NCBI RefSeq assembly: GCF_000172995.2
Contig: NC_014729.1
Coordinates: forward strand, 2,760,001 to 2,792,000
Source of the DNA: Halogeometricum borinquense DSM 11551
GTDB lineage: Archaea > Halobacteriota > Halobacteria > Halobacteriales > Haloferacaceae
DNA length: 32,000 bases
Reading direction: 5' to 3'
The notes beneath the pieces are model-generated. The model made no database searches, was not told the DNA's origin, and worked only from the letters and a program-made list of their open reading frames with translations. Shown one piece after another: positions 2,902 through 19,139 of this stretch (positions within the stretch are counted from its first letter, which is position 1; the number at the start of each line of letters is the position of its first letter). Both the position numbers and the translations under genes were made by a program.

Positions 2902-2907
2902 ACGTTC

Positions 2908-4452
2908 TCACCACGGCCTCACATCATGAGCAATGTTGTACATCAACTTAAGTTCCTCAGAGGTCCACTTGTACGTTTCAACGTGGGTGCTTTCTTCATG
3001 GCTGTCGTCCATCCCCTTTGGGACTATTGTACACGCCTCAGCATTCCCAAAGTCTTCCTCTGATAGGTCGTTAATGCAGTCGTTTAATCGATCAATGTTT
3101 TCGATTTTAGGTTTGCCAGTCTCACCCCGTGGAATCCCGTAATCTATGTCCTTGAGTGCACGTTTCGCTTGTTTAGTTGCCTTACTCGCATAATCATCGT
3201 CAGTTGAACCAACTTTTTCTTCGACCACCTTCACAACCTCTCCCGACTTTTTGTCCACGATTAGTTTATCGAATTCCGGATTTCTACTGGAATTCACTTG
3301 GACTCCTTTGACCATGGAGTCGTGGCCGGGAACCACGGCAAGTTCGCCTCTCTCGTCGGAGTCCTCAACGAAGCTTTCGACGAGATTTTTCTCAGGGTGC
3401 GACGAAAGGACCTCTCCTACATCTCCTTCACTGGCCCCAAGATCCTTCGGAGAGTCACCGATTCTCCAGAGGTCCTCGAAAAACTCATCATATTTGTCGT
3501 CGTCTACGGTCTGTTCTAACTCAGCGAGTAACTCGTCACTCAATCCCATCTCTTTGAGCGCCACCAGTGGTGACGCCACAGTATCCCGATCAGGGAGGTT
3601 GTTCCAGCGGGGCATCCGCTGAACGTGCACGTCTGAGTGCTCCATGCGATGCACGCCAATCTTTCCGCCTTGCATCACGCGCTGAGCGGTTTCTTCGGCT
3701 TCCCGTTCCAAGCGTGGGTCAGGATCAATCTCTAACTCGCCTGCTTGGGGAAGCATCGACACCGCGCCACCAGTCTGCTGGCGCACGTGCGCGAGTTCGT
3801 GGGCGAGAATATGCTGACCTTCAGCACTCGATGGATCGTATTCGCCGTGGTTGAACGCGATGTGATTCCCGACGGTAAACGCGCGGGCGTTGATATCCTC
3901 GCAAGCTTTCGCGGCCGATGGACCCGTATGGATGCGTACATCGCCCAGATTGTCGCCCATCCGATCTTCCATCGCACGCTGGATGCTCGTGTCGAGTTGC
4001 TGGCCCGGCGAGGAAATCACGTCTCGTACGGAGTCAGGCACGTTCGTGTCGCCAGCTTTCGACGCCTCGTGGTGCGCGCCGCGACTACGCTGGACAGATT
4101 TAGCGTTCCGGCGTTCGATGTCCTTTGGGACTTCTGCGGGGCGTTCTTTCTGACGCTGGCGGAACGCGCGCATGTCGCGTGGCTTGCCCATCGTATCGAC
4201 GGTCATGCCTTCGTCGGCCCATTCTCGGACTTGGTCTGCGCCGTGTTTCTTGGCCAGTCGCTGAATCTTCGTATCCAGCCCGTCCATGTATATTTCGACG
4301 CCGAATCGTGATTCACACTCTTGGGGCGTTAGCGGACCACCGCCACCACGACTCCGAGTCCGATTCAAGCCTCCCGTCAACTCTTGAATAGACGGAACGG
4401 ACGAGGATCGATCACCCTCACGGGCCCGTTCCTCTGTAGATCGAAATTCCAT
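2908..4452 (-). CDS. DUF4157 (zincin-like HExxH) domain protein with a divergent C-terminal domain; polymorphic-toxin-like effector
   Basis: The stretch LGDVRIHTGPSAAKACEDINARAFTVGNHIAFNHGEYDPSSAEGQHILAHELAHVRQQ matches the DUF4157 signature (VRIHt..A..a...A.AfT.G..I.F....y.P....G..LLAHELtHVvQQ). The C-terminal 230 aa are unrelated to this domain. A TATA-like TTATAT lies about 30 nt upstream. Confidence 0.9.
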   Translation of the reverse strand: MEFRSTEERAREGDRSSSVPSIQELTGGLNRTRSRGGGGPLTPQECESRFGVEIYMDGLDTKIQRLAKKHGADQVREWADEGMTVDTMGKPRDMRAFRQRQKERPAEVPKDIERRNAKSVQRSRGAHHEASKAGDTNVPDSVRDVISSPGQQLDTSIQRAMEDRMGDNLGDVRIHTGPSAAKACEDINARAFTVGNHIAFNHGEYDPSSAEGQHILAHELAHVRQQTGGAVSMLPQAGELEIDPDPRLEREAEETAQRVMQGGKIGVHRMEHSDVHVQRMPRWNNLPDRDTVASPLVALKEMGLSDELLAELEQTVDDDKYDEFFEDLWRIGDSPKDLGASEGDVGEVLSSHPEKNLVESFVEDSDERGELAVVPGHDSMVKGVQVNSSRNPEFDKLIVDKKSGEVVKVVEEKVGSTDDDYASKATKQAKRALKDIDYGIPRGETGKPKIENIDRLNDCINDLSEEDFGNAEACTIVPKGMDDSHEESTHVETYKWTSEELKLMYNIAHDVRPW

Positions 4453-4542: not shown

Positions 4543-4926
4543 TTAGAACAGCGCAGAGAGAACGGCGAGGTCGTCGGCCGACGGCCACGTGTAGAGCGCC
4601 CACGCGCCGAACACGTAGGTCATGAGCGGGACTTCGAGGCCGAACGCCCACGGGACCACGAACGGCGTGAGGAGTGCCCCGACCATCGTCGGCGCGAGGT
4701 TCGCAACGACGACGACGACCACGGGCGTCCCAGCGGGGTAGTTGAGTTCGAGACGCGGTGGAACGAGTCGATCGACGAGATCCAACGGGCGGGTTGCCTC
4801 GATCCACGGCCACGCCACCGCAGCATGCGTGAGTTCGTGCGCGAGTACTGCGGGGAACATAACGAGCGCCCCGAGGAGATCGACGAGGCCGACATTCTCT
4901 GAATCCGTATCAGAGGTCGTCGTCAT
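4543..4926 (-). CDS. Small polytopic membrane protein with an HExxH motif (putative membrane-embedded zinc metallopeptidase); last gene of the long operon
   Basis: AHELTHAAV sits at the edge of a hydrophobic helix and there are about 4 TM segments. I chose the start at ATG 4926 because it overlaps the upstream stop (ATGA) and GGAGGTG lies 10 nt upstream. The track ORF extends to 4953. Confidence 0.7.
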   Translation of the reverse strand: MTTTSDTDSENVGLVDLLGALVMFPAVLAHELTHAAVAWPWIEATRPLDLVDRLVPPRLELNYPAGTPVVVVVVANLAPTMVGALLTPFVVPWAFGLEVPLMTYVFGAWALYTWPSADDLAVLSALF

Positions 4927-5282
4927 CGCGGACGAGCACCTCCGCCGTTCCATAAGCTAAACAGTGCAAGCGCCGCGCCGAACAGGATCGACATGAACGC
5001 TCCAATCTTGGCCGCAGGCGGGAGGAACGGCATGAGGAACCCGCCGATCAGGATCGAAATCACTGCGGGGAGATCAGCGCGACCCTCAGTGAGGATGTAG
5101 AGAATCGTGCCGATCCCGATCCCGAGCATGGCCGGCGCAACCGGCCCAAGGAGATCCATGAACGGCTTGACGAACCCCGCCCACGCGTCGCCCTCTTTCC
5201 ACGGATCGTCGTAGGGGCTGTCGTACTGTGCGACCGTACTCGAGAGAACCCACGCGACCTCCAAGAGAACCGAGGACGTCAC
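4923..5282 (-). CDS. Polytopic membrane protein (119 aa) ending NGGGARPR
   Basis: It has 3-4 hydrophobic helices. I chose the GTG start at 5282 because it overlaps the upstream stop (GTGA) and GGGGGTG lies 8 nt upstream. The longer track ORF (to 5375) would overlap the upstream gene by 97 nt. Confidence 0.7.
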   Translation of the reverse strand: MTSSVLLEVAWVLSSTVAQYDSPYDDPWKEGDAWAGFVKPFMDLLGPVAPAMLGIGIGTILYILTEGRADLPAVISILIGGFLMPFLPPAAKIGAFMSILFGAALALFSLWNGGGARPR

Positions 5283-5659
5283 CGCGGACGCACCCCCGAA
5301 CGCCCGGTGAACATGTAGATCACAAATAGACCCATTGACCACGTGAGTGGCGACGCGATCATAACCGCACCCCACGACGGAAGGCCCGCATTGACGAGCA
5401 TATCCGCTAAGGCGTATATCAATACGAACGACGAAACGACCTCGTCAGTACCGGAGATCGTCGCGCCGATAAACGAGGTATCGCTCGAGCCACGACTCGC
5501 TGAGTAGTCCTTGAGATCGCCTTTGCTCTGCGCGACGTCGTCTTGAACGCCCGTGTCCGGTTGCATCCCGAGCCAGTCAGCAGTTCCCGAGGCAGTCATG
5601 GCCCCACCGACGCCCGCTACGCAAACGATGAACAGGAGGATCGTCGCCGGGTGTCTCAT
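5279..5659 (-). CDS. Small secreted/membrane-anchored protein (126 aa)
   Basis: The N-terminal signal-like segment is MRHPATILLFIVCVAGVGGAMTASG, and there are C-terminal TM helices plus a GRSGVRPR tail. ATG 5659 overlaps the upstream stop (ATGA), with GGAGGTG 7 nt upstream. The N-terminal extension of the track ORF is Arg-rich junk. Confidence 0.7.
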   Translation of the reverse strand: MRHPATILLFIVCVAGVGGAMTASGTADWLGMQPDTGVQDDVAQSKGDLKDYSASRGSSDTSFIGATISGTDEVVSSFVLIYALADMLVNAGLPSWGAVMIASPLTWSMGLFVIYMFTGRSGVRPR

Positions 5660-8600
5660 CGCCGACCACCTCCGCCAACGGCCATAGCGACTGCGACGAG
5701 TCCAGCAAACACGACCACCCCGCCGCTCGCGGTGTACCACCCGAGCCACCACATGACCGCGGCAACTCCGGTAACCGCAAGGGAGCCGATCGACGAGAGG
5801 CGACCACCGAACAGCATCCCCACGAACAGGAACAGGCAGGTGAGGATCACAGGCGTCCACTTCGGGCCTATCGGGTTCTCGATGACGTACCGCTTGCCGT
5901 CTGCGAGGTCATTCGAACTCTCGATTACTGTGTTCGACGAGTTGTAAGCGTACCACGTGACCTCCCAATCCGTTTCGGTGAGATTACCAGAGACGGTCTT
6001 GTTGAGGCTGAACGTTCCGTATCCTTCCGTGTACGTGCTGTTCATGATCTCGTTGCTTGAGTTGTTCGCCGCGTGGATGATGACGCGGAGCTTGCTCGTG
6101 TTCTGTGTTGGATCATGGTATTGGAAGTGCACGACGCCGTTCGGTTCCTCGTTGCCGTCGGTGAGGTCGATGTACGCGGCAGAGTGTCTGATCGCCTGCG
6201 TGTTGTCCTCGACTTTCCACGATACCTGGCCGACGTTGAGAGTAACAGTTCCCTTTCGCGTCGCCGTGTAGGCACCGAGCACGCGGCTTGAGTTATGTTC
6301 GCCGACGATACGAATCCGGTATCGACGATCCTTCTCAAGGGTTGCCTCGAAGCGTCCCTCGGCTCCGAAGAAGTCTCCGGAGACCGTGACCCACTCAAGG
6401 CCGCTCGACGTGTTCACCGCGCGCTCGATGTAGAGTTTTGCTCGTTCGTTGGATCCGGAGAACTCACCAGTGAGGTCGTTGAGGACGAACTCGGTGTAGT
6501 AGGCCGTCTTGCTGTCGTTAAGGAGATAGACCGAATCTTGCTCATAGAGTGACGTGATGATCACTGTGCGACGGTTGTGACCGTCCGCCTCGAGGACGAG
6601 GACGTAGGTCCGATCGACTGGCAGATCCGTGAGATTGAGCTTGCCGTTCTCTGTCGATCGCTCAAAGACGAGTTCCCCGGAGAAGAACCGTCCAGTGACG
6701 GTGACATTCGTCCCGTTGATCAACTCCTTGGGTTGGTTGACCGGGCGGATGTAGAGCGTCGATGGGACGAGATAGGTCTTATTCGCCGAGGTCGCGTCAG
6801 GGTTGCTCGAATTTCCCGAACCGTACTCGTCGTAGACGCGCACGTACCAGGAGTGATTGCCTCCGCCGACGTCGGTGATTGTCGTTGACGCCGTCCCGTT
6901 CGCCGAGAGCGTGTCAGTCCCAACGACCTCGCTATCGACGACGAACTCGGCTGTGACGGTGTCGCCGTCGAGCTGGAAGTCCCGGTCGGAGACGTTGACC
7001 GAGAGGGTAACGTCCTTGCTCGTCAACTTCGCCCCGTCCTCCGGGCTCATGCTTGAGGAGTTGACCGTCGGCTCGTAGTGGTCGATCTCCCAGGTGAACG
7101 AGTCCGACTCGGAGGTGAGGCCGTACTCGTCGGTCATCTCGACGTGCCACGTGTGGTTGCCGTCCTCGAGCGGGCCGACGTCGAACGTCACCGTCCCGTT
7201 CTTCGTGACGTTCTTGCTGCCGGCGACGGCGCCGTCGAGCACGAGATCGACCTTGACCTCGTCGCCGCTCGGCTCCGCAAAGTCCCGGTCGGAGACGTCG
7301 ATCGAGATCGTCTCGTTCGCGTATCTCGAGGTCGAACCGTCCGGGCTCGCCGAGCTGTTGTCGACGTCCGCCGCGTAGTGGTTGACCGTAAAGTTCCACG
7401 TCGACGACGTCGTCGCCTCCCCATACTCGTCGGTCGTCTCGACGTGCCACGTGTGGTTGCCGTCCTCGAGCTCGGTTACGGTCGTCGAGACGGTCTGGTT
7501 CGACGTGATCGTTTGTGTGTCGACGATCTCACCGTCGAGATAAACGTCGACGGTGACCGAGTCGCCTTGTGGTGTCGAAAAGTCCGAGTCGGAGATCGGG
7601 ACCGAGAGCGTTACATCCTCGTTGTTGGTGTCGCTCCCGCCGCTTGGAGCCGCCTCAGCTCCGTCTATCGACGGCGCTCGAGGTTGGAACCAAACGCCCT
7701 CGTCATGGATCTCGGCGACCGTCCCCGCCGGTTCGTCGTCGAAGACGACCTTCGTCCGCCACATCTCGTAGCTGGTGTTCCCGAGGTCAAGCGTGTAGTT
7801 CCCCGTCGACGAGTAGGTCGAGCTCTCGACGTCCGTCCAAGACGACGTCGAGGAGTCGTAGGCCTGGATTGTGACCGTCGCGCTCGCGTTCTGGAGCGTG
7901 AGGTCCGCCCACGCCTTCTTTGCGTTCCCAACGTCGTGAGGCTGCGAGATGTACGTCCCGCTGGACTTCTCACCGTTGAGATCGATCGCGTCGAAGTATT
8001 GGGCGTTGTGTTTCCACGCCTCCATCATGATACCGCCGGATTTGACCGTCTCATTGGAATCCGTCGCGGAGAGGGACGCGACGACGTTCCCGGCTTCGTC
8101 GTAGACCGTATAGTTCAGCTCGCCGTTCTCACCCCACTCAATTTTTCCACGGACCCACTCGCCCGAGGGAGTCCCAATATCCTTGTCGCGTAGGGTCGTG
8201 GACGTCCCATTGACGACCTTGATGATTCGGATGTCTTGAACGGTGTAGCCGTGCCTGACCCGATAATAGTTATTCGAGTCCTTCCCGAAATTGAACGCCC
8301 ACCCACCGCCAGAACCATCGTGGTAGGTGCGGAACGAGATCGTGTCGCCCGCGGACGGGTACTTCGGTAGCCCACTCGTCGAAACGAGATCCTCATCGAC
8401 GCTTGGGTCCATCTCGACCGCGTAGTCTCCGCTCCAGACCATCGAGGACTGAACGGTGTCGCCTGTCGTTTGCGTGTATTCGGACAGATCACCGTCCTCG
8501 AAGCCGTCTACGGTCTGGTTTAGCTGTCCTTCCAGCGCCACGGACGCCGACGTGCCGGACCCTTCGACGGAGACGTTCGTGAGCTCGGTCGCGTCGTTGA

Positions 8601-8751
8601 AGTCGCTCGCCGTGGTGTGGGAGCTCCCGACCGCAAGATCGCCGCTACTTGCCGCCGCAACCGGCGCGGTGCTCACGACGAGGTAGGTCGCGAACAGCGC
8701 GAACGCGACGATCGCCGGTCGGCGAGCGTCCTCGAGGCGGTCGCGGATCAC
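5656..8751 (-). CDS. Large secreted protein rich in N-glycosylation sequons, with a C-terminal TM anchor; spike/adhesin-like envelope glycoprotein candidate
   Basis: Signal peptide RRPAIVAFALFATYLVVSTAPVAAASS. More than 30 N-x-S/T sequons. LamG/ConA-like N-terminal region, then three 100-aa beta-sandwich-like repeats. C-terminal TM helices end in VGGGGRR. The probable start is GTG 8751 (GTGA overlap with the upstream stop, GGGGGTG 7 nt upstream). The track start is 8805. Confidence 0.9.
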   Translation of the reverse strand: MIRDRLEDARRPAIVAFALFATYLVVSTAPVAAASSGDLAVGSSHTTASDFNDATELTNVSVEGSGTSASVALEGQLNQTVDGFEDGDLSEYTQTTGDTVQSSMVWSGDYAVEMDPSVDEDLVSTSGLPKYPSAGDTISFRTYHDGSGGGWAFNFGKDSNNYYRVRHGYTVQDIRIIKVVNGTSTTLRDKDIGTPSGEWVRGKIEWGENGELNYTVYDEAGNVVASLSATDSNETVKSGGIMMEAWKHNAQYFDAIDLNGEKSSGTYISQPHDVGNAKKAWADLTLQNASATVTIQAYDSSTSSWTDVESSTYSSTGNYTLDLGNTSYEMWRTKVVFDDEPAGTVAEIHDEGVWFQPRAPSIDGAEAAPSGGSDTNNEDVTLSVPISDSDFSTPQGDSVTVDVYLDGEIVDTQTITSNQTVSTTVTELEDGNHTWHVETTDEYGEATTSSTWNFTVNHYAADVDNSSASPDGSTSRYANETISIDVSDRDFAEPSGDEVKVDLVLDGAVAGSKNVTKNGTVTFDVGPLEDGNHTWHVEMTDEYGLTSESDSFTWEIDHYEPTVNSSSMSPEDGAKLTSKDVTLSVNVSDRDFQLDGDTVTAEFVVDSEVVGTDTLSANGTASTTITDVGGGNHSWYVRVYDEYGSGNSSNPDATSANKTYLVPSTLYIRPVNQPKELINGTNVTVTGRFFSGELVFERSTENGKLNLTDLPVDRTYVLVLEADGHNRRTVIITSLYEQDSVYLLNDSKTAYYTEFVLNDLTGEFSGSNERAKLYIERAVNTSSGLEWVTVSGDFFGAEGRFEATLEKDRRYRIRIVGEHNSSRVLGAYTATRKGTVTLNVGQVSWKVEDNTQAIRHSAAYIDLTDGNEEPNGVVHFQYHDPTQNTSKLRVIIHAANNSSNEIMNSTYTEGYGTFSLNKTVSGNLTETDWEVTWYAYNSSNTVIESSNDLADGKRYVIENPIGPKWTPVILTCLFLFVGMLFGGRLSSIGSLAVTGVAAVMWWLGWYTASGGVVVFAGLVAVAMAVGGGGRR
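6766..7659 (-). repeat. Three tandem 300-nt (100-aa) domain repeats inside the glycoprotein gene
   Basis: Repeat landmarks LEDGNHTWHVETTDEYG, LEDGNHTWHVEMTDEYG and VGGGNHSWYVRVYDEYG are spaced exactly 100 aa apart. Each is preceded by (D/S)VSDRDF-like strands. Confidence 0.85.
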
Positions 8752-9041
8752 CGCGGACCACCCCCACGGAACGATCCCTTGCCCGCGACGACGGCGTAAA
8801 GCCACGCCACGATCCCGATCATAAGGAACGTGGGAGCGATCACGAGCCCGACATCGAGCGTGAAACTCAGGTTGTCGTCAAGGCCCTCCTCCTCGATCGC
8901 GCCGTTGTCAGCTTTCTTGACGGCGTCAGCGGTCCCATCAATCGTCGGGATCCCCACGACGACGAAGATACCACCGAGGAACAGGAGGAGCACCACGATC
9001 ACGAACGCGGAGAGATAGGACCCTCGGCTCTGTCGTCGCAT
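8748..9041 (-). CDS. Small 2-TM membrane protein (97 aa)
   Basis: Two hydrophobic helices flank an acidic loop, and the tail is FRGGGPR. ATG 9041 has GGAGGT 8 nt upstream, inside the end of the preceding gene. Confidence 0.75.
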   Translation of the reverse strand: MRRQSRGSYLSAFVIVVLLLFLGGIFVVVGIPTIDGTADAVKKADNGAIEEEGLDDNLSFTLDVGLVIAPTFLMIGIVAWLYAVVAGKGSFRGGGPR

Positions 9042-9044
9042 GAG

Positions 9045-9341
9045 TTAGAACCTCCGTCCAGTTTCGTTGATGGAGCGCCGAAACGAGATCAGTAAGGCTG
9101 CGAGTGCCGCTCCCCACAACGGCCAATACTCCCACAGGAGCCGATACCGTCGAACCGTCTCCTCGCCCCGGCTTGAATCGGCCATGCTGTTGCTCATGTT
9201 GAACAGCATGTGCTGCGGGCCGTCGAGGAACGACCACAACATAACGGCGAGGAACAGCACGCCGAACAGGAACAGGCCGAACCACGCGAAACTCGCATGG
9301 ACGGTGAGGTTCTCGTCGAGTTCACCGAACCAGTGAGTCAC
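9045..9341 (-). CDS. Small 2-TM membrane protein (98 aa)
   Basis: The GTG start overlaps the upstream stop (GTGA), with GGAGGTG 7 nt upstream. There are two hydrophobic helices. Confidence 0.75.
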   Translation of the reverse strand: MTHWFGELDENLTVHASFAWFGLFLFGVLFLAVMLWSFLDGPQHMLFNMSNSMADSSRGEETVRRYRLLWEYWPLWGAALAALLISFRRSINETGRRF

Positions 9342-12300
9342 CGATGGCCACCTCCGTATCCGGCGTTATCGTCGATGCCCGCAAGCGTCTCCTCGAAGGC
9401 AGCGTTGGCAGAATCGAGAGCGTCGTCAACCGCGGTGGAACGCTCAGCGCTCGCAAGCGTAGCGTCGAGCGCCTCTGTGGCGCTCGCGACGGGATTCACC
9501 CAGTCCTCTCCGTAGCCGACGAGCGGAGCGAACTGATCGATGCGCTCTTGCTCGTCGTCGTTGCTGTCGTCACGTCGGCGGCGATCGTCATCATCCCATG
9601 GACCACGAAGAGGGAGTCCCCCGTCTCCACCTCCACTCCCACCGCTGCTCGACGGAGGATACGACGGGCCACCACCACTGCCATCGCCACCCCCATCGCC
9701 GCCCGGCGGAGGATATGACGGACCCGGACCACCGCCACCGTCGTTACTATCACCGCCTGGCGGGGGATATGACGGGTCAGAGCCACCGCTGCCATCACCA
9801 CCCGACGGTGGATATGACGAGTCAGGACTACCGACACCACCGCTTGGTGGCAAATACCCCGAGCCGGGACCACCACTACCCGATCCACCGTAGGGTGGGA
9901 CGTCCGGCTCGCCACCGGTCGGAGCGCCACCGTAACCGCTCCCGACATCCGGATCAGGATAGCCGAGCGGGACGACGGGGGTAGGATCTGACGCGTCCGC
10001 GCCGTCTTTGTAGGCGTACTGTGAGGCGCGTGCACCGTCAGAATCTGAATCTGTGTCAGGAGACCTATCGGGCCCGTTGTAGGTATTCGTATCCGAGTCG
10101 GCAACTCGTGCTGTCGTGTCAGTATCGACATCGACAGCCCGTCCGGAGGGAAGACCCGCCTGACCTCGGGAGTCTGCGAGGAACGCCTGAGCCTCCTGGG
10201 GGAGATCAACATCGGGGATTTCCGGCGACGGTGGGTTCGGGTTTCTCAAGGTCGTGGTGCCGAACTCGTCTTCGAGATCGCCCCACGATCCGTAGTTTTC
10301 GTCCGGGAGCGACAGATCACCCCACGCGTCTTGCCACGAATCGGCCGCCGCTTTCGTCCCACGAGCCCGCCACCGAGTGATAGGATTGAGCGACTTGCTT
10401 TGCTGTTCGGCCATCCGTTCTGCGATCGTGCCGACGTCAACGACGTCTTTCGACCGCCATGTCTTCGGGGCGATCTCGCCCTCGCCGAACAGCCTCATTC
10501 CCCCTTCGATCTTCGCGTTTACCTGACTCTCAACGGGTTGGATTTTGACACCGTCGGCGGATCGGGTCGGGCCGTGGAGGTCGCCTGACCAATCTTTTTT
10601 CCCACGAGCACGGGAGCGGTCGTTTATATCGACCATGTGATCCCACCCATCCTCGGTCTTGACCTCGATTCCCCCTCGGCGCTGCATGGGACGGTCTTCG
10701 TACTTGCTGAGTATGTCGAAAAGTTCCTTCTGAGCCTTATCGGTATCACCAGTGTAGATGTCTATGTCATCGGGCGTACGGGCCTTCCCCGTCTGCATGA
10801 GTTGTGAGACACTTCCTCCGAGCTCCGAGTCGGTTGTTTTCAGCCACTCAGTGACTTCGGGAGCTGCCTCGTCGGGAATCTGTTGCGCGTTTCGAATCCC
10901 CTTCTCGGCCGTGGTGTCGGTGCCACCACTGACACGATCAACAACGGCATCTGTTCGAGAGCGGTCGCCGAGTCGCTCTGCGATTTCACGTCCTGCCTCG
11001 TATCGTTGCAGATCCGTCCCTTCTAGTTGGTTTCGGAGATTTGTGTCCCATATCGATGTCTCGATGGGCGAGGTTGGGGCAACCCCGCTTGAGTCCGGTC
11101 TCTTTGGAGGCCCTTGGAGATCGACATCCGGCGTTCCCACAGTCGGGCGGTGGTTGGTGACCCCGATTCGAGGAGTCGGGTTCGATCCTGGTAGCTTGGT
11201 TGTAAGGCCGCGGTAGGTCGTGACGTCGCCTCCATCTGGGACCTTCGCCGTCTCTACGCGTACCGGCATCTTTGACCCGATACCGACTTTTGTCGTGAGT
11301 CGCCCCACACCGAACCCAGTCAAGAGACCCAAACCAGCACCACCGACGAACTCAACGGGGCTAGATCGCGCTTCATTGACCATTGCTTCTCCCGCTTCCC
11401 GTCCGAACGCGGTCACGGTTTCACCAACAGCACCCGGCCCGTACTCTTCGACCGCATCGGGAGCGTTCTGTGCGACCTCGATACCCGTCTCGGCAGTTGT
11501 GATGTGCTGCGGAACGTTCAGAAAGTCAACTCCTGCCTTAGCAGCACCTTCGAGCAGTTGTTCCGGGACTCCTTCCTGCGAGTCAGGTACTCCGCCTTCA
11601 TCGGTTTCGATCGTCTTTTTGTAGTCATTAATGTCTTTAGCAACGCTCCTTACCTGCTGTTCTTGATCCTCAGAAAGGAGTCCTCCACTCTTCGTGAGGT
11701 CGTCACTGATATTCGTATTGAATTCAGCGTTGTTGACTGCCTCTCCCGTGTTTTCGGCCGAATTCTCTACACTTTCTTCTACTGCATTTCCAACGTTCGA
11801 GGCAGTCTCACCGACCGTATCCACACCACCACTGACAGAGTTTCCTACGTCACTCACGACGTCCGTGGCGGTATCAGTGGCCGAATCAATGCCACTGTCC
11901 ACGGAGTTGCCAACGTCATTCGTGACGTCAGAGGCAGTATCGGTTACTGTATCAACCCCCTCACCGACAGAATCTCCAACGCCGTTCACGACATCGGAGG
12001 CAGTATCGGTTACCGAGTCGATCCCGTCGTCAACAGAGTTTCCCACATCGTTCCCGATGTCTGAGGCGGTATCGGTGACTGAGTCGATACCATCGTCAAC
12101 AGAGCTGCCTACATCGTTTCCAATGTCTGAGGCGGTGTCGGTAACTGTGTCAACACCGGACTCCACCGCACTCCCAACATCGTCGAAGAATCCGCCACTG
12201 TCGCTGGACGATGAACTCGAGGAGGTTGGCGAGTCCAAGGACGAACCAGAGTGGTCTCGCCCCGCCTCTTGCGATGACCCTGACGAGCCGCCGATCCCGA

Positions 12301-12523
12301 CCGAGTCGGTCACGGAGTCAGCAGCGTCCGAGACGGTGTCGGTGATGCCGTCCCAGAACCCGCCACCGCCGCCCGAGTCGTTCGACGAGGACGAAGAGTG
12401 GGACGATCCCGAGGACCCCGACGAGCCGCTGCTCGAGGAACTACTCGACTGAGAGCCCGACGAACTACCGGAATCACCCGATTCGGATCCGGAATAGCCG
12501 GGGATGTTGTCTAAGAATCCCAT
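9338..12523 (-). CDS. Giant (1061 aa) low-complexity/repeat protein with poly-Ser/Gly tracts, 22-aa tandem repeats, a Gly-rich hydrophobic segment, a globular middle region and a Pro/Gly-rich SYPPxGG region
   Basis: A single uninterrupted ORF. The ATG directly abuts the upstream stop (TAGATG). Composition is extremely acidic, S/G/D/T-rich at the N-terminus. See the repeat features and findings. Confidence 0.9.
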   Translation of the reverse strand: MGFLDNIPGYSGSESGDSGSSSGSQSSSSSSSGSSGSSGSSHSSSSSNDSGGGGGFWDGITDTVSDAADSVTDSVGIGGSSGSSQEAGRDHSGSSLDSPTSSSSSSSDSGGFFDDVGSAVESGVDTVTDTASDIGNDVGSSVDDGIDSVTDTASDIGNDVGNSVDDGIDSVTDTASDVVNGVGDSVGEGVDTVTDTASDVTNDVGNSVDSGIDSATDTATDVVSDVGNSVSGGVDTVGETASNVGNAVEESVENSAENTGEAVNNAEFNTNISDDLTKSGGLLSEDQEQQVRSVAKDINDYKKTIETDEGGVPDSQEGVPEQLLEGAAKAGVDFLNVPQHITTAETGIEVAQNAPDAVEEYGPGAVGETVTAFGREAGEAMVNEARSSPVEFVGGAGLGLLTGFGVGRLTTKVGIGSKMPVRVETAKVPDGGDVTTYRGLTTKLPGSNPTPRIGVTNHRPTVGTPDVDLQGPPKRPDSSGVAPTSPIETSIWDTNLRNQLEGTDLQRYEAGREIAERLGDRSRTDAVVDRVSGGTDTTAEKGIRNAQQIPDEAAPEVTEWLKTTDSELGGSVSQLMQTGKARTPDDIDIYTGDTDKAQKELFDILSKYEDRPMQRRGGIEVKTEDGWDHMVDINDRSRARGKKDWSGDLHGPTRSADGVKIQPVESQVNAKIEGGMRLFGEGEIAPKTWRSKDVVDVGTIAERMAEQQSKSLNPITRWRARGTKAAADSWQDAWGDLSLPDENYGSWGDLEDEFGTTTLRNPNPPSPEIPDVDLPQEAQAFLADSRGQAGLPSGRAVDVDTDTTARVADSDTNTYNGPDRSPDTDSDSDGARASQYAYKDGADASDPTPVVPLGYPDPDVGSGYGGAPTGGEPDVPPYGGSGSGGPGSGYLPPSGGVGSPDSSYPPSGGDGSGGSDPSYPPPGGDSNDGGGGPGPSYPPPGGDGGGDGSGGGPSYPPSSSGGSGGGDGGLPLRGPWDDDDRRRRDDSNDDEQERIDQFAPLVGYGEDWVNPVASATEALDATLASAERSTAVDDALDSANAAFEETLAGIDDNAGYGGGHR
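9614..9961 (-). repeat. Pro/Gly-rich degenerate repeats (SYPPxGG-type motif, about 5 copies) near the C-terminus of the giant protein
   Basis: Protein stretch PPYGGSGSGGPGSGYLPPSGGVGSPDSSYPPSGGDGSGGSDPSYPPPGGDSNDGGGGPGPSYPPPGGDGGGDGSGGGPSYPPSSSGG. Confidence 0.8.
11750..12187 (-). repeat. About 6.5 tandem copies of a 66-nt (22-aa = 2 x 11-aa) repeat in the giant protein gene
   Basis: The units are DSVTDTASDIGNDVGSSVDDGI / DSVTDTASDIGNDVGNSVDDGI / DSVTDTASDVVNGVGDSVGEGV / DTVTDTASDVTNDVGNSVDSGI / DSATDTATDVVSDVGNSVSGGV / DTVGETASNVGNAVEESVENSA. The DNA copies are visibly similar but not identical. Confidence 0.9.
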
Positions 12524-13528
12524 CTACGGGAGCACCCCCGACGGTGGCATAATCATACCCGCGCCGCCCATCGGGATCGAGATCCCACCACCACTGCCAG
12601 CCGCAGTGAACCCGATGTACGCGACAATCGCACCAAGCATGAACGCGCCCATGAGCAGTCCCGCTTGCCCGAGCGGACCGAGCGACGCGAAGCCCTGTTG
12701 ACCTTTCTTCGCATTCTCCGCAACGCGGTGGAACTGTTGCGGCTTGACGTTGAACGGCGCGGCGTGGATCGTATCACGGAGGTCCACGACCTTCCGAGTC
12801 GGGAGCATCGTCTCCCACTCGTCGATCACCGTCTTGCCGCCGTCCGTGAGCGGATCATCCTCGTCGTCTCCGACGCGGTCGCGGGCGGCATCAACACCGT
12901 CACCGAGCCGGTCCCGAGCCGATCCGACGCTCTCACCGAGCTTATCGCGGGCGCGACGACCTTCATCCGCGAGGACCTGCGTGCCGTTCACGAGGCTATC
13001 TGCGATCTGGGTTCCGGCCGCAGCGATCAGTTCCGGACCGTCCTCTTGGGCTTTCCACGTCGCATAGTCAATCGTCGAGAGGTCCTCGGCGTAGTGCTGC
13101 ATCTTGATCCGTGCCTGCCGTCCGACCTCACCGGAGGCCGGTTCGGCAAGCGCGCCGAGGCCGTCGTAGGCGATTGCGAGCGCAGTCCCGCCATACCAAC
13201 CGCCCGGATCTCCGCCGACGCCGCTCGCGTCGTAGAACTCACGACCGTCGGCTGTCGGGACCCAGTACCCGTTATTCTCGCCGTCGTAGGTCGCCGGCTT
13301 GAGCGACCACAGGCCGTCCTCGTCCTTGATCGCCATGAGCGTCTTGCCCATAATCCGTGATCCACGGCCGATCAGTCGCCGCCCGAGCTTGTCTCGGACA
13401 CTGCCGACCGGGATATTGTGACCGCCCATGATCAGGAATATCGAGAGAACCGAGATCACCCCGACGATCGGCATGACCTTGTCCCACAAAATCTGCAAGA
13501 ACAGATTGAGCCACGGCATGAGCGCCAT
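12524..13528 (-). CDS. Membrane protein (334 aa) with an N-terminal TM, a soluble middle and Gly-rich C-terminal TM segments
   Basis: N-terminal helix VMPIVGVISVLSIFLIMGG and C-terminal helices LGQAGLLMGAFMLGAIVAYIGFTAAGSGGG. There is an internal 11-aa periodic stretch ARDKLGESVGS/ARDRLGDGVDA/ARDRVGDDEDD. GGAGGTG lies 8 nt upstream of the ATG. Confidence 0.85.
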   Translation of the reverse strand: MALMPWLNLFLQILWDKVMPIVGVISVLSIFLIMGGHNIPVGSVRDKLGRRLIGRGSRIMGKTLMAIKDEDGLWSLKPATYDGENNGYWVPTADGREFYDASGVGGDPGGWYGGTALAIAYDGLGALAEPASGEVGRQARIKMQHYAEDLSTIDYATWKAQEDGPELIAAAGTQIADSLVNGTQVLADEGRRARDKLGESVGSARDRLGDGVDAARDRVGDDEDDPLTDGGKTVIDEWETMLPTRKVVDLRDTIHAAPFNVKPQQFHRVAENAKKGQQGFASLGPLGQAGLLMGAFMLGAIVAYIGFTAAGSGGGISIPMGGAGMIMPPSGVLP

Positions 13529-13600
13529 CTACGGCTCACCTCCGTTGGATTTCAGCTGTTCGTCCATCGTGAAGTACACGATATTTTCGTTGTTTGACAT
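13529..13600 (-). CDS. Possible 23-codon micro-ORF (MSNNENIVYFTMDEQLKSNGGEP) bridging two operon genes
   Basis: It is not in the ORF track because it is under 60 aa. Its ATG lies 3 nt after the upstream TAA, and its TAG directly abuts the next ATG (TAGATG). Its last codons carry the GGAGGTG that serves the next gene. Confidence 0.3.
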   Translation of the reverse strand: MSNNENIVYFTMDEQLKSNGGEP

Positions 13601-13603
13601 GGG

Positions 13604-14164
13604 TTATCCCACCAATTTCGAGAGAAGACCGCCGCTGCTGTCGTCGCGTTCCTCGACGATTCTGCGCTCTGACTGTTGCTCTGCGAGGAGCTTCTGTTGC
13701 CACCCGTCCCGGGAACGTGTGTTGCGCTCGTAGGCCGCGTCGCGGGTGTCCCGGGCCTCGTGGATCTCTGTCGGCGAGAACGGCCACGGTTTGCCGTCAA
13801 GGCCGGCCACCCTCCGTCGCGGCCCCTGCCATATCGACTCCGAGGGCGGTGCGCTCGCGAGGAGGAGATCCATGTTGATATCGAGCTCGTGCCGGCGATA
13901 CCACAGCTCCGCCTCGTCGAGTTTGCCGAGGATATGGTCCTGGTTCAGCTCCGACGCCCACAACTTCGCGGCGTCGGGCGGCGCTCCCGACCGCGAGAGG
14001 GTCGAGAGGAGATCGCCAGCCGGGTGGTCACCGTAGTTCATGCCACGCGTTGCGGCATCGCGGTCCCACGTCCGGGGTTGCCAGTCATCGTTATTCGCCG
14101 TACTCCGTCCGTTTGCGGGGTTCTCTACAGTCTTCGTGTGTCCGTTAGTTCGTGCGTTACCCAC
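13604..14164 (-). CDS. Soluble hypothetical protein (186 aa), the only clearly non-membrane protein of the operon
   Basis: It has no hydrophobic helices. The GTG start has GAGGTGA 6 nt upstream. Composition is mixed-charge and W-rich. Confidence 0.8.
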   Translation of the reverse strand: MGNARTNGHTKTVENPANGRSTANNDDWQPRTWDRDAATRGMNYGDHPAGDLLSTLSRSGAPPDAAKLWASELNQDHILGKLDEAELWYRRHELDINMDLLLASAPPSESIWQGPRRRVAGLDGKPWPFSPTEIHEARDTRDAAYERNTRSRDGWQQKLLAEQQSERRIVEERDDSSGGLLSKLVG

Positions 14165-14166
14165 GT

Positions 14167-14514
14167 TTAGTCACCTCGTTGGGGTTTTTCGCGCTGTTCG
14201 GGTCCGGTCGGAGCCACCGGGTTATCCTTCCCGAGGACCGCCTCGACCGGATGTTCGGGGAGCTTGTCGAGTCCTTCGAGTATCGTCATGGCGAGCATAA
14301 ACAGGAGACCGCCGAGCCCGAGCGCGAACATGCCGAGCATTGTCCGCGGATCGCCGCCGGTGAGAGGTTCAACAGCGAACGAACTGATTGAGAACGCGCC
14401 GAAGAACACCATGCTCGCCGGCATGGTCGTGAGCGGTGCTCGACGGTCTATGAGTGCTATTTTGGCAGCCCCGAGCGCACCGAAAAGAAGTGCGAGATAA
14501 ACAGGTACGAGCAA
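14167..14514 (-). CDS. Small 3-TM membrane protein (115 aa)
   Basis: The TTG start follows a perfect GGAGGTGATC located in the end of the upstream gene. There are three hydrophobic helices. Confidence 0.75.
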   Translation of the reverse strand: MLVPVYLALLFGALGAAKIALIDRRAPLTTMPASMVFFGAFSISSFAVEPLTGGDPRTMLGMFALGLGGLLFMLAMTILEGLDKLPEHPVEAVLGKDNPVAPTGPEQREKPQRGD

Positions 14515-14520
14515 CGAAGA

Positions 14521-14997
14521 TCACCTCCGTCCACGTCGCCCGCCGCCACCGAACCCGCCGACGAGCCCCAGAATGAGGGCTGCGACGAGGACGATCACGG
14601 CGACCGCGCCGAGGACGAACGCGCTCCCGATCGTGCCGATCGAGTTGCGCGCCATGTCCGGCTTGTGGTCGAAAGCGTAGTCGATCTCCGCGGTCGCACC
14701 GTCTGTTGTACTCGTCGTACTATACCATGCTACCGAGTGATTTCCGGGATACCACTCATAGTCGGTTCCCTCAGTGAGGTTCGTACCCGAACTGTTCGTG
14801 ATCGTCTCGTTTTCATAGTATTTCTCGCCGTACGTCTTGTCAACCGACGTTGCGTTGCCCACGTCTATCGTGATCGACTCGTTCGCGACGCTCGATGTCG
14901 CCATAGCCGGCATCGTGCCGAAAATCGAGGACACAACGTAGATCCCGACGATCAGCATGACCGCCACGGTGACCATCTGGTTAAACGAGTCTTCCAC
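14521..14997 (-). CDS. 2-TM protein with a sequon-rich ectodomain; paralog of the C-terminal half of 15047..15625
   Basis: It shares FNQMVTVAVMLIVGIYV... and ...AVIVLVAALILGLVGGFGGGGRRGRR with its neighbour. The loop has NES, NAT, NET, NSS, NLT and NHS sequons. The track start GTG 15006 lies inside the SD GGAGGTGA, so GTG 14997 (5 nt after it) is preferred. Confidence 0.8.
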   Translation of the reverse strand: MEDSFNQMVTVAVMLIVGIYVVSSIFGTMPAMATSSVANESITIDVGNATSVDKTYGEKYYENETITNSSGTNLTEGTDYEWYPGNHSVAWYSTTSTTDGATAEIDYAFDHKPDMARNSIGTIGSAFVLGAVAVIVLVAALILGLVGGFGGGGRRGRR

Positions 14998-15046
14998 GTG
15001 TCTCACCTCCGTTCATAAGAGTGGTTTTAGGGTGTGAGATGGGTGT

Positions 15047-15625
15047 TTAGCGGCGACCCCGTCCGCGACCACCGAAGCCGCCGACGAGCCCGAGGATCAC
15101 CGAGGCGACGAGGACGATAATCGCGACAGACCCAAGAGTGAACGCGTTACCCGTCGTTGACTTGACGGTGTTTGTTGAGTTCGCGAGTTCGGGGTTCGAC
15201 GGCGTCGGCATCGTCGAACTGATCTGAGCGAACACGTAGATCCCGACGATCAGCGTGACCGCGGCCGACACCATGCGAGTGAATGTCGCTTCAATCGCCG
15301 CGTAGACCTGGGAATCCTCACCGAGGCGCTCGCCGATACCGAGTTCCTCGTCAACCTCATCCCACTGCCGTCCGGCGTAGAGATCGGCCATTTCCTGCTG
15401 AATCTCCGCGGCCGTGCGGACGTCCTCGATCCCACCCTTGAGGCGCTCGCGAACGTCGTTCACGCCGTTGATGATTGCCGCCTGTCCGATAGCGACGAGA
15501 CCCGCACGCTGTTCGGAGCTGAGTCCTTCTGTCTCGATCTCAGCGTCGAGAACGTGGTCGTCGAACTGTTCCGCGTCGTTGCTGCGCCGGTCGTATCCGG
15601 CGTGGGGGGTTGCATGAACCTCCAT
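15047..15625 (-). CDS. First gene of the long operon: an acidic N-terminal soluble domain plus two TM helices, ending GLVGGFGGRGRGRR
   Basis: The ATG start sits at the edge of a 114-nt divergent intergenic region. TM helices are TFTRMVSAAVTLIVGIYVFAQI and GSVAIIVLVASVILGLVGG. Confidence 0.85.
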   Translation of the reverse strand: MEVHATPHAGYDRRSNDAEQFDDHVLDAEIETEGLSSEQRAGLVAIGQAAIINGVNDVRERLKGGIEDVRTAAEIQQEMADLYAGRQWDEVDEELGIGERLGEDSQVYAAIEATFTRMVSAAVTLIVGIYVFAQISSTMPTPSNPELANSTNTVKSTTGNAFTLGSVAIIVLVASVILGLVGGFGGRGRGRR

Positions 15626-15739
15626 ACAGCCGAGAATTATCTCCGCTCGCTTAGATTGGCCAACTTAAGGGCCATTGGCGTGGTTTTGATAAGGTTAAGG
15701 ACAACCGTTTTTGTAAGACTATCAGTATTGAGTATATGT
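15626..15739. promoter_or_regulatory. Divergent promoter region between the minus-strand membrane operon and the plus-strand NTPase module
   Basis: It is AT-richer than its flanks. A TTTTTGTAA element is centred about 28 nt upstream of ATG 15740, and an AATCTAA element about 29 nt upstream of ATG 15625. This spacing fits leaderless haloarchaeal transcripts. Confidence 0.5.
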
Positions 15740-16012
15740 ATGGCAAGCGCCAATCCATCTACCCAAGGCGCGGACGGGACGCGAAAGACGACCCCGCAAG
15801 GCGACGTCAACAGTGAGGTACTCGGGGAGAAAGTGCACGATGATATAAAGACGAGGCAGGCCCAACAAAATGGGAACTCTGAGAACTGCATTGAGGTCAA
15901 TCTCACAAAATTCGGAAAGCAATATCACGGAATCGAGAAAGGACAGCTCCTTGAGGTCGAAGTTCGCGAAGGCGGTATTCTGATCAAACCCTGTGAATTC
16001 GCCGAACGATGA
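15740..16012 (+). CDS. AbrB/SpoVT-like small DNA-binding protein (90 aa)
   Basis: The C-terminal IEVNLTKFGKQYHGIEKGQLLEVEVREGGILIKP resembles the swapped-hairpin AbrB/MazE fold motif. I chose internal ATG 15740 because the N-terminus of the track ORF from 15554 overlaps the divergent gene and reads as junk. Confidence 0.7.
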   Translation: MASANPSTQGADGTRKTTPQGDVNSEVLGEKVHDDIKTRQAQQNGNSENCIEVNLTKFGKQYHGIEKGQLLEVEVREGGILIKPCEFAER

Positions 16013-16632
16013 GCGACAGTCGCCCCGATAACCGTGACAAGGACGGCCCGACGGGCTCTGATCGACTGATACTCGACGCTTACGAACGAGCCGCTGAACA
16101 CCGCGAGCGCGCGGAACTTGCTCCGTTCGTTCCCGACAACGTGGTGAATTCGGAGATCGCCTCGGCCGAATACTTCGCGTCGGTGATCGAGTATTACAGT
16201 CGGCTTGAGCCGCACCTCCCCGACCGACCGCACTATTGGGAACAGGTCGCGCTCATGCCGAATCCCGTCGGATCCGACCGGAACAAGGTCGTCGATGCGC
16301 TCATGGATTTCTACAACGTCGATGCGGAGACAGCGCTCAACTGCCTTGAGTGGATGGAGGAAGATCCGAGCTTCCCAATCGAGGCACGCGACGACGAACA
16401 GATTATGCACGGGCTCCGCTCCCTGCAAGCGTGGCGCTCGCGCACGACACCAGACACCCAACAGTACGACGACGTCCTTGAGGGCCGCGTCACCGTTCGC
16501 CGCGAACTCCCACAGTATCTCCCGCGTAAGCACACTCTTCGGGTACACACGGTTCTCGACGAGGCGGCGAGCAAGCTCGGGTTCGGTCCCGAGGGTGACA
16601 TCCCCGAAGAATGGGAGAAAGACCCGATCTAA
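16009..16632 (+). CDS. Hypothetical acidic protein (207 aa)
   Basis: ATGA overlap with the AbrB-like gene. Composition is halophile-like. I recognise no motif. Confidence 0.8.
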   Translation: MSDSRPDNRDKDGPTGSDRLILDAYERAAEHRERAELAPFVPDNVVNSEIASAEYFASVIEYYSRLEPHLPDRPHYWEQVALMPNPVGSDRNKVVDALMDFYNVDAETALNCLEWMEEDPSFPIEARDDEQIMHGLRSLQAWRSRTTPDTQQYDDVLEGRVTVRRELPQYLPRKHTLRVHTVLDEAASKLGFGPEGDIPEEWEKDPI

Positions 16633-16647: not shown

Positions 16648-17547
16648 ATGGCGAAAGCTCAAATCACACATCCCACGGCCGACCGTATCCCCGAACCCGT
16701 CCGGAACTCTCCAATCCTCCGCAAGGTGATCTACCGGCGGGTTCACGAATGGAACCAGAACTTCATGGGCGTCGTCGTCGGCGAGACGGGCAAGGGCAAG
16801 TCCTACGCCGCTCTCCGTCTCGCCGAGGCTCTCTACCCCGATTTCGACGTCGACAACGTCGCATTCACTCTCGAGGAGTTTTTCGGACTCGTCGAGGAGG
16901 ACCAACCCGAGGGATCGGTGATCGTCCTCGACGAGGCCGGCGTCGGCGCCTCACATCGCGACTGGTACGACGACGCCCACCAGCACCTCAACTACGTGTT
17001 GCAAACGTGGCGCCACCAGAACCGGATCGCGATCCTCACGCTTCCCGAGCTCGACAAGCTCGATCCCGTCGCTCGGTCCCGGCTCCACGGCTATTTCGAG
17101 ATGATCCGGATCAACCACGACGAGGAGTGGTCGCGGGCTCAGTTCAAGAGGATCAAGACGAACCCGAGGACCGGCGAGAACCACTACCCGTACCCTCGAC
17201 TCCGGTGGGACGGGACCAAACGGAAATATAAAGGACTCACCTTCGGCCTCCCGTCCGTGGATCTGATCGGTGCTTATGAAGAACGTAAAGAGAAGTTCAC
17301 AGACTCCCTAAACAAGACGGCAAAGGAGGCCGTTGCCCCTGACGATGATGACGAGGAGGAGTATAGCCCGCGTGAGGCCGTTGACGAGATCGAGTCACGC
17401 GACGCCGTTGACGCCTACCTTGAGGACTCGCCCGGTGGACAGTACATCAACCGGAACCTCCTCAAGGTGGACTACGGGCTTACAGAGAACGAGAGTAAGA
17501 CCGTCAAGAGTCTGCTAAAGCGGAGGTTCGACCTTGACGTCATGTGA
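16648..17547 (+). CDS. P-loop NTPase (299 aa), a small virus/plasmid-type morphogenesis or packaging-like ATPase candidate
   Basis: Walker A is GVVVGETGKGKSYAA and Walker B is SVIVLDEAGV. GAGGT lies 9 nt upstream of the ATG. The C-terminal tail is acidic. Confidence 0.9.
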   Translation: MAKAQITHPTADRIPEPVRNSPILRKVIYRRVHEWNQNFMGVVVGETGKGKSYAALRLAEALYPDFDVDNVAFTLEEFFGLVEEDQPEGSVIVLDEAGVGASHRDWYDDAHQHLNYVLQTWRHQNRIAILTLPELDKLDPVARSRLHGYFEMIRINHDEEWSRAQFKRIKTNPRTGENHYPYPRLRWDGTKRKYKGLTFGLPSVDLIGAYEERKEKFTDSLNKTAKEAVAPDDDDEEEYSPREAVDEIESRDAVDAYLEDSPGGQYINRNLLKVDYGLTENESKTVKSLLKRRFDLDVM

Positions 17548-18891: not shown

Positions 18892-19073
18892 GCGCGGTCG
18901 TCGCGAGGGCGTTCGCTCGATTCGTCTCTTGGCTTTCTCCTCCGGAGGACGTCGCCGACGAGCTCCCCGCGTGGGACGAGTGCTACAACTGTGGAGGGAC
19001 GATTGAGCCGCCCGAGCGTCCGAGCATGGTCCTCGTCGAGTGTTCAGAGTGCGGCCGTCGAAACATCCGATGA
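18888..19073 (+). CDS. Small zinc-ribbon protein (61 aa)
   Basis: CYNCGG...x17...CSECG gives two CxxC pairs. There is an ATGA overlap with the AAA+ gene. Confidence 0.7.
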   Translation: MSAVVARAFARFVSWLSPPEDVADELPAWDECYNCGGTIEPPERPSMVLVECSECGRRNIR

Positions 19074-19129: not shown

Positions 19130-19139
19130 TCACGACGCT

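Follow-up and report, generated by a model that had tools for sequence, protein, structure and literature searches.

The membrane-protein operon of an integrated element in Halogeometricum borinquense as the probable virion-morphogenesis module of an LSV-48N-like provirus

What is an 11-kb operon for, when almost everything it encodes is a membrane or secreted protein and no gene in it can be recognised as a capsid gene? The operon in question lies in a 32,000-nucleotide stretch of the chromosome of Halogeometricum borinquense DSM 11551 (NC_014729.1, positions 2,760,001 to 2,792,000; hereafter the window). An initial annotation took it for a particle-morphogenesis module without jelly-roll or HK97 capsid, portal or terminase genes, which is borne out by the results below, and likened it to pleolipoviruses or vesicle-forming plasmids, which is not. 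We propose with considerable confidence that it is the virion-morphogenesis module of a chromosomal provirus belonging with the LSV-48N-like lemon-shaped viruses, the proposed Almyrocitroviridae.

An operon collinear and homologous with the LSV-48N structural module

The operon occupies the minus strand from 15625 to 4543 and consists of 12 co-directional, tightly packed open reading frames (ORFs), g1 to g12, where 12 to 13 had been counted initially; most of them overlap a neighbour. No intergenic gap exceeds 75 nt, and 5 junctions overlap by 4 nt (ATGA or GTGA). Gene starts were refined against the gene calls of identical or near-identical contigs and then checked by script. Kyte-Doolittle hydropathy scans give one to three hydrophobic helices for each of the eight small membrane proteins that the initial annotation had listed, and none for g4 and g6. 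A Shine-Dalgarno-like GGAGGTG precedes almost every start and falls within the last codons of the previous gene (for example at the junctions 5656-5680, 8748-8775 and 9338-9365), so that the shared C-terminal Gly-Gly-Gly-Arg-Arg tails are partly a footprint of the ribosome-binding site of the next gene. The genes are as follows (TM, transmembrane).

15047-15625, minus strand: g1, 192 aa, candidate major capsid protein precursor
14521-15006, minus strand: g2, 161 aa, paralogue of g1, candidate minor capsid protein (VP3-like)
14167-14514, minus strand: g3, 115-aa small membrane protein, positional equivalent of LSV_18
13604-14164, minus strand: g4, 186-aa soluble protein with no TM segment, equivalent of virion-associated LSV_17
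12524-13528, minus strand: g5, 334-aa bitopic membrane protein, equivalent of virion-associated LSV_16
9338-12523, minus strand: g6, 1061-aa acidic repeat protein without TM segment, equivalent of virion-associated LSV_15
9045-9341, minus strand: g7, 98-aa small membrane protein, positional equivalent of LSV_14
8748-9041, minus strand: g8, 97-aa two-TM protein, positional equivalent of LSV_13
5656-8751, minus strand: g9, 1031-aa glycoprotein, candidate receptor-binding adhesin or tail spike
5279-5659, minus strand: g10, 126-aa membrane protein, orthologue of virion-associated LSV_11
4923-5282, minus strand: g11, 119-aa membrane protein, positional equivalent of LSV_10
4543-4926, minus strand: g12, 127-aa membrane protein with HELTH, candidate membrane zinc protease, non-structural

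A second operon diverges from the first. This two-operon arrangement, described initially as divergence from a module of a P-loop nucleoside triphosphatase (NTPase), a MoxR ATPase and a VWA protein, is real and is conserved in all related loci.

15626-15739, between the divergent operons: intergenic region of 114 bp, AT-rich, presumed bidirectional promoter region
15740-16012, plus strand: d1, about 90 aa, equivalent of LSV_21
16009-16632, plus strand: d2, 207 aa, orthologue of virion-associated LSV_22
16648-17547, plus strand: P-loop NTPase, 299 aa, B251/Zot-like, candidate morphogenesis ATPase
17713-20348, plus strand: MoxR-type AAA+ ATPase (392 aa), 61-aa ORF and VWA protein (402 aa), with Pfam AAA_5, CbbQ_C and VWA

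A tblastn search of 50,697 phage and virus records with the NTPase gives a single match, the lemon-shaped virus LSV-48N of Haloferax (42% identity, 96% of the query), and g2 gives a weak match to the same record. This record (PP151251.1; 24.9 kb, circular) contains a minus-strand operon of 13 genes encoding proteins of 166, 143, 99, 199, 290, 824, 86, 92, 904, 122, 99, 74 and 116 aa, and a divergent plus-strand operon for proteins of 97, 195 and 317 aa, of which the 317-aa protein is the NTPase; a 206-aa integrase gene comes next. Gene-by-gene BLASTP between the window and LSV-48N yields collinear matches: g9 with LSV_12 (4e-96; 39% identity over the full length), the NTPase with LSV_23 (4.5e-75; 42% identity), g10 with LSV_11 (1e-16), g12 with LSV_08 (4e-12), g2 with LSV_19 (1.6e-8), d2 with LSV_22 (1.6e-5) and, weakest, g11 with LSV_10 (0.044).

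A survey of haloarchaeal genomes for syntenic loci, which the initial annotation had proposed, finds the same gene order in at least nine further genomes or contigs. Those with the MoxR-VWA pair (group A) are from Halolamina salifodinae, Halarchaeum salinum and a JGI metagenome contig, and those without it (group B) are from Haloprofundus halobius, Haloarchaeobius sp., Halogeometricum limi, Haloferax chudinovii and another JGI contig. We built one alignment per gene position for each group and compared every position by HHalign; group B families are written here with a b and the number of the LSV-48N gene. The resulting matrix is essentially diagonal, with 11 of the 14 families scoring best at the equivalent position. 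Matches are strong for g9 with b12 (100%), g2 with b19 (99.6%), g1 with b20 (98%, top in its row), g10 with b11 (98%), g12 with b08 (98%), d2 with b22 (96%) and d1 with b21 (91%). They are intermediate for g5 with b16 (67%, E = 5e-5), g6 with b15 (37%, E = 3.5e-4) and g4 with b17 (31%, E = 5e-4, 134 columns). The best matches of g11 (b10, 12%) and g3 (b18, 2.4%) are weak, the position and size of g3 being kept in all loci; g7 and g8 have no profile match between the groups, and their position and size are conserved among the related loci. These alignments show that, at the level of sequence, gene order and homology are shared between the module and its LSV-48N structural counterpart.

Evidence that such a module makes particles comes from LSV-48N itself, whose lemon-shaped particles (65-90 x 35-50 nm) were seen by transmission electron microscopy in culture supernatants and within cells, and of which 13 proteins were detected by proteomics in the particle-containing supernatants (Turgeman-Grott et al. 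2025, PMC12714723). Assigning the proteins of Dataset EV2 to the GenBank genes by size and order, we obtain LSV_11, 12, 13, 15, 16, 17, 19, 20, 22, 23, 24 and 25 together with an 84-aa protein, so that the counterparts of g1, g2, g4, g5, g6, g8, g9, g10, d2 and the NTPase are among those detected. LSV_12, the counterpart of g9, is the most abundant LSV-48N protein in the supernatants, and LSV_15, that of g6, has 81% peptide coverage.

The NTPase places the module in a wider context. A profile of 54 NTPase sequences matches B251 of the fusellovirus SSV1 (HHalign 96.9%, E = 1.4e-10, 193 columns) and ORF16 of His1 (90%). In the AlphaFold2 model (mean predicted local distance difference test score, pLDDT, of 90) the C-terminus forms a small helix-strand domain, the top Protein Data Bank (PDB) match is the Zot N-terminal domain 2r2a, and the best viral structure matches (BFVD) include ORF286 of Acidianus two-tailed virus (ATV) and inovirus Zot proteins. 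The NTPase is thus shown to be a Zot-like ATPase of the B251/His1-ORF16 type, in agreement with a published account (bioRxiv 10.1101/2021.07.29.453957) in which the morphogenetic modules of spindle viruses comprise an adhesin, a capsid protein and a B251-type ATPase that is pI/Zot-like and lacks TM segments.

The MoxR-VWA pair is found in the Halolamina, Halarchaeum and JGI relatives of group A and is absent from the LSV-48N-type loci of group B. From this distribution of sequences, it is an accessory pair specific to the Halogeometricum/Halolamina/Halarchaeum clade. After the VWA gene there are three small minus-strand ORFs (109, 77 and 143 aa; window 20361-21348) that have no family match and recur at the same place in the relatives bearing the pair.

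Searches with other resources return little. Pfam, NCBIfam and PADLOC scans of the products give scarcely more than Ig-like domains, AAA_5, VWA, integrase, eCIS_core and DUF7845; a nucleotide comparison (megablast) of the whole 11-kb operon with plasmids and phages gives no match; IMG/VR pattern scans with the adhesin and NTPase alignments give nothing; and a scan of GTDB genomes gives one true relative only.

The hairpin proteins and a proposed mode of assembly

The shell of spindle-shaped virions is made of membrane-inserted hairpin capsid proteins, and because of this a module for such a virion looks as though it held only membrane proteins and no capsid. The product of g1 has a layout of this kind: a soluble, helical N-terminal extension of about 110 aa is followed by a C-terminal hydrophobic two-helix hairpin with N-S-T in its loop and a GG..RR tail. 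AlphaFold2 places helices at residues 37-95, 104-136 and 151-185 (mean pLDDT 68.7). Among its 67 homologues the extension varies from 0 to 110 aa, natural short forms of 76-94 aa being included, and what is conserved is the C-terminal unit, in which two hydrophobic helices are joined by a loop of about 25 aa, usually with an N-x-S/T sequon, and are followed by a Gly-rich tail ending in Arg. A search of 1.84 billion representatives with the hairpin profile gives 332 clusters, and the hairpin is C-terminal in all of them.

The paralogous pair noticed in the initial annotation is g1 and g2 (BLASTP E = 9e-10), and the two genes also share DNA repeats of 107 nt and 41 nt (D2 and D5). In g2 helix 1 sits at the N-terminus, and compared with g1 the hairpin loop is enlarged by about 65 aa through a sequon-rich insert.

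The authors of the LSV-48N study found no provirus ORF resembling a known capsid protein (PMC12714723), and the candidate capsid protein of the related Tebi-SV1 is a 17.5-kDa two-helix protein (PMC13612827). When an expanded hairpin profile is compared with 36 small membrane proteins and reversed controls, VP21 of His1 ranks first (9.5 bits) and VP1 of SSV1 second (5.8 bits), a ranking that is suggestive only. Sequence searches of the PDB with the g1 and g9 profiles give no meaningful match. Capsid proteins of the SSV1 and His1 type have about 75-90 aa and two hydrophobic helices, and it is by its architecture, seen in the hairpin and in the natural short forms, that g1 qualifies as a candidate capsid protein; its relation in sequence to the known capsid proteins is suggestive only.

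The remaining large products fit what had been claimed for them. The bitopic 334-aa protein is g5, with an N-terminal and a C-terminal TM segment; it has 12 homologues among haloarchaea and is identical to H. borinquense DSM 11551 C499_08697. The one soluble protein besides the repeat protein is g4. The repeat protein, g6, has a Ser-rich N-terminus, about five 22-aa tandem repeats (period 66 nt, 4.8 copies by TRF) and a Pro/Gly-rich C-terminal part. Its PHROG tape-measure matches (the best at 52-584, most within 41-321) fall in the repeat-rich N-terminal half and are treated as compositional. The anchored glycoprotein, g9, has an N-terminal hydrophobic segment, 34 N-x-S/T sequons, three repeats of about 100 aa matching Ig-like Pfam families (Big_13) and three C-terminal TM helices; its orthologues swap Ig-like and concanavalin-like lectin domains (Laminin_G_3), a modularity in the sequences that would fit a receptor-binding protein. 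The terminal HExxH protein is g12, whose HELTH motif is invariant in five sequences across groups A and B. Its counterpart LSV_08 is absent from the LSV-48N supernatant proteome, and we infer that g12 is probably a membrane metalloprotease retained in the cell.

Relatives differ in detail. Between g4 and g5, where the window has a mere 75-nt gap (13529-13603), an extra gene of 79-116 aa is present in Halarchaeum (locus L012, 9762-10001) and the JGI relative (L014, 9651-10001). An insertion sequence (IS) element with a DDE_Tnp_1 transposase lies between g6 and g7 in the latter, a metagenome contig (L014, 14775-18589), and another IS element lies near the Haloprofundus provirus (L016, 14789-16636).

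To account for these features we propose the following. The g1 product would be made as a precursor whose C-terminal hairpin enters the cell membrane and serves as the main building block of a spindle-shaped shell, with g2 as a paralogous minor shell protein bearing a glycosylated loop domain. The glycosylated adhesin or tail spike g9, anchored by its C-terminal helices, would recognise the host, and g4, g5, g6, g10 and d2 would be further particle components, probably of a terminal or tail complex. The HExxH protease g12 would stay in the cell membrane, where it may trim the extension of g1, by analogy with the processing of SSV1 VP1. The B251/Zot-like ATPase could drive the loading and extrusion of DNA at the membrane, as the pI protein of filamentous phages would suggest, and the MoxR-VWA pair would be an additional chaperone system particular to its clade. 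As with LSV-48N, the shedding of particles would be chronic and would not involve lysis.

Several points weigh against this interpretation or parts of it. The margin in the hairpin-profile ranking is narrow, as the best control reaches 4.9 bits against 9.5 and 5.8 for VP21 and VP1; HHalign of the g1 hairpin against VP1, VP3 and VP21 stays below 5%, and Foldseek of the g1 model against the PDB gives no match with E below 1. The g1 counterpart LSV_20 has a low intensity-based absolute quantification (iBAQ) value in the LSV-48N proteome. We regard this last point as weak counter-evidence, because the LSV_20 hairpin contains no Lys or Arg between the residue before helix 1 and the last residue and, having no internal tryptic site, would be released as a single peptide of about 85 aa that escapes detection. 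The capsid protein could alternatively be another two-helix protein, g8/LSV_13 being a candidate. The equivalence of g3, g7 and g8 with LSV-48N genes is positional only, and the profile support for g4, g5 and g6 is moderate (31-67%). The roles suggested for the g12 protease and for the MoxR-VWA pair are analogies, and the element is known here from its genes alone, with its left end outside the window.

A further-reaching reading is possible, though we would hold it only tentatively: that the g1 hairpin family is the major capsid protein of the LSV-48N type and a true, very distant homologue of SSV1 VP1 and His1 VP21, its precursor being trimmed by g12, and that the MoxR-VWA clade is a separate lineage of genus level or higher that remodels its particles with the pair, as proposed for ATV.

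The integrated element and alternative readings

The element that carries the operon sits integrated in the 2.8-Mb H. borinquense chromosome, and the integrase noted initially proves to be one of two tyrosine recombinases. Three of its genes outside the structural module have orthologues in LSV-48N (HTH, helix-turn-helix):

1-1689, plus strand: DUF7845 and HTH regulator (Pfam DUF7845, 4e-93), orthologue of LSV_26
22577-23182, plus strand: tyrosine recombinase, 201 aa (Pfam Phage_integrase), orthologue of LSV_25 (BLASTP 6e-14)
27903-28931, plus strand: tyrosine integrase, 342 aa (Pfam Phage_integrase), orthologue of LSV_30

The DUF7845-HTH protein is 66% identical to LSV_26 (BLASTP E = 0) and the 342-aa integrase 61% identical to LSV_30 (2e-155), against about 25-42% for the structural proteins, which suggests that the regulation and integration module has been exchanged or evolves far more slowly. 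Because the DUF7845 ORF runs without an in-frame stop through positions 1-72, the element continues past the left end of the window, inside which it covers at least 29 kb. At the other side, the 342-aa integrase probably lies near the right end of the provirus, and the DUF7847 and DnaJ-ferredoxin genes to the right of it look host-derived. A repeat search within the window finds no att-like repeats, probably because the left end is outside it, and tRNA and Rfam scans of the window find none.

Other genes are scattered around these. A 514-aa eCIS_core (DUF4157) HExxH protein and an adjacent 140-aa ORF (2479-4452, minus strand) lie 90 nt downstream of g12, partly in a patch of 45% GC. In another H. 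borinquense strain (locus L001) three shorter eCIS_core ORFs take their place, so the segment looks like variable cargo; perhaps the two genes are a toxin/immunity pair. At 21000-27000 GC is lower (49-55%), and a 412-aa matrixin-like M10 metallopeptidase (24683-25921, minus strand) is accompanied there by several small ORFs with no family match, all of them between the two recombinases. Two DnaJ-domain proteins are encoded nearby, one (27149-27871) just upstream of the 342-aa integrase and inside the presumed element, the other (30646-31476) in what is presumed to be host flank, with a 2Fe-2S ferredoxin domain fused to it. Elsewhere, a serine recombinase (Resolvase) replaces the small tyrosine recombinase in Halolamina (L010, 1348-2259) and the JGI relative (L014, 620-1441), and the Halarchaeum relative has a Cdc6-like gene near that recombinase position (L012, 58-1128).

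The alternative that survives best, although we judge it rather unlikely, is that the provirus is defective or domesticated: an LSV-48N-type module that no longer yields infectious particles and may have been taken over by the host for a surface or vesicle structure. The element is known here from its sequence, low-GC cargo-like segments and extra genes (eCIS_core, M10 peptidase) flank the module, and relatives carry IS insertions. However, none of the 12 genes is disrupted, their starts are coupled, and no member of the conserved families is missing. Alleles about 90% identical exist in other H. borinquense genomes and related copies in several genera, which suggests a circulating element rather than a fixed relic.

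Much less probable is the reading favoured initially, a module like that of pleolipoviruses or of pR1SE, which would have a lipid vesicle bud around DNA by means of a spike, an internal membrane protein and an NTPase. The likeness does not go deep: it consists in the abundance of membrane proteins, a single large anchored glycoprotein, the presence of an NTPase and the lack of classical capsid genes. VP3, VP4, ORF6, ORF7 and VP8 of the pleolipovirus HRPV-1 all stay below 5% in HHalign against every module profile, neither PHROGs nor tblastn searches with the NTPase and g2 match a pleolipovirus, and the NTPase has no homologue in PLSDB plasmids by tblastn. What homology there is leads instead to the lemon-shaped LSV-48N and to fusellovirus B251. 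The weakest alternative, a conjugation-type or other surface DNA-transfer apparatus (type IV secretion- or Ced-like) on an integrative element, can draw on the many small membrane proteins beside a P-loop NTPase next to an integrase, but we dismiss it as the NTPase is of the B251/Zot type, homologous proteins are found in supernatants containing virus particles, and Pfam, NCBIfam and PHROGs reveal no VirB4, TraG, HerA, relaxase or pilin families, nor any archaellum or pilus families.

Comparison with known spindle-shaped viruses

A provirus of LSV-48N-like type thus remains the preferred reading. LSV-48N and its relatives, Tebi-SV1 and a Halorubrum provirus were placed in the proposed Almyrocitroviridae in 2026 (PMC13612827). 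As LSV-48N is already published (PMC12714723) and the family named, the lineage is no longer undescribed, contrary to what the initial annotation had thought possible, and the element is a rather divergent new member of a lineage described in 2024-2026, not a new kind. The literature that we searched mentions no Halogeometricum member of the LSV-48N-like family.

The halophilic spindle-shaped viruses studied are, to our knowledge, only His1, LSV-48N and Tebi-SV1. The present analysis adds Halogeometricum, Halolamina and Halarchaeum to the lineage, identifies 12 morphogenesis genes as a core kept even between distant members, and links the lineage with fuselloviruses by way of the B251-type ATPase. 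It further provides testable candidates, namely a precursor-type hairpin capsid protein, a VP3-like paralogue, a conserved membrane HExxH protease and the clade-specific MoxR-VWA pair, and offers an explanation, for annotation, of a block of "hypothetical membrane proteins" as the structural module of a provirus.

One parallel is with the spindle-shaped archaeal virus ATV. MoxR/VWA pairs are known from archaeal viruses, and those of ATV, p618 (MoxR) and p892 (VWA), are tied to extracellular tail growth (Scheele et al. 2011, as summarised in PMC4124505 and PMC7911831). ATV resembles our element in encoding a MoxR-type AAA+ ATPase together with a VWA partner; the parallel is one of the pair as such, tail growth being described for the ATV pair. 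ORF286 of ATV is in addition among the top viral structural matches of the NTPase.

His1 (Halspiviridae) shares the general layout. Its capsid-gene-led operon diverges from an ATPase operon, its ORF16 is related to the NTPase, and the types of protein, represented in His1 by VP21, ORF23, VP26 and VP27 among others, follow each other in a similar order. A protein of two helices is followed by one with a TM segment at either end, by small proteins with several TM segments, by a bitopic protein (about 280-330 aa) and by a large anchored one. The N-terminus of VP27 and g9 have a DGFEDG-type motif in common, and the layout of g1 and g2 also mirrors that of VP21. There is no significant similarity between the His1 structural proteins and those of the module, and the His1 genome, unlike the element, is linear and encodes a protein-primed polymerase but no integrase.

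With SSV1 (Fuselloviridae) the resemblance extends to the organisation of the capsid genes. Translation of SSV1 upstream of VP3 gives a VP1 precursor with a soluble extension of about 66 aa and a hairpin whose loop has NLT and NAT sequons. VP3 is an adjacent paralogue of VP1 that starts at helix 1 and has a longer loop, as g2 does relative to g1. In both viruses the paralogous pair has a DNA repeat common to both genes and a short charged tail, and both have a B251-homologous NTPase, a large terminal adhesin gene (VP4/C792 in SSV1) and an integrase. The differences are that the hairpin has no significant similarity to VP1 or VP3, that the module, at 11 kb, is far larger and encodes additional virion proteins, and that the hosts are halophilic Euryarchaeota rather than thermophilic Sulfolobales.

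The closest relative is LSV-48N. Its structural proteins are only about 25-42% identical to those of the element, several being recognisable by profile or position only, its host belongs to another genus, and it lacks the MoxR-VWA pair that is inserted here after the NTPase. The cargo of the H. borinquense element also differs, consisting of the eCIS_core protein and the M10 peptidase, with no Cdc6 gene seen within the window, and particles have been observed for LSV-48N whereas genes alone speak for the element. In common, both are integrated in a haloarchaeal chromosome, both have the same order in the structural module and the divergent NTPase operon, with a small tyrosine recombinase downstream, and there is demonstrable homology for g1, g2, g9, g10, g12, d1, d2, the NTPase, both recombinases and the DUF7845 regulator, together with moderate homology for g4, g5 and g6.

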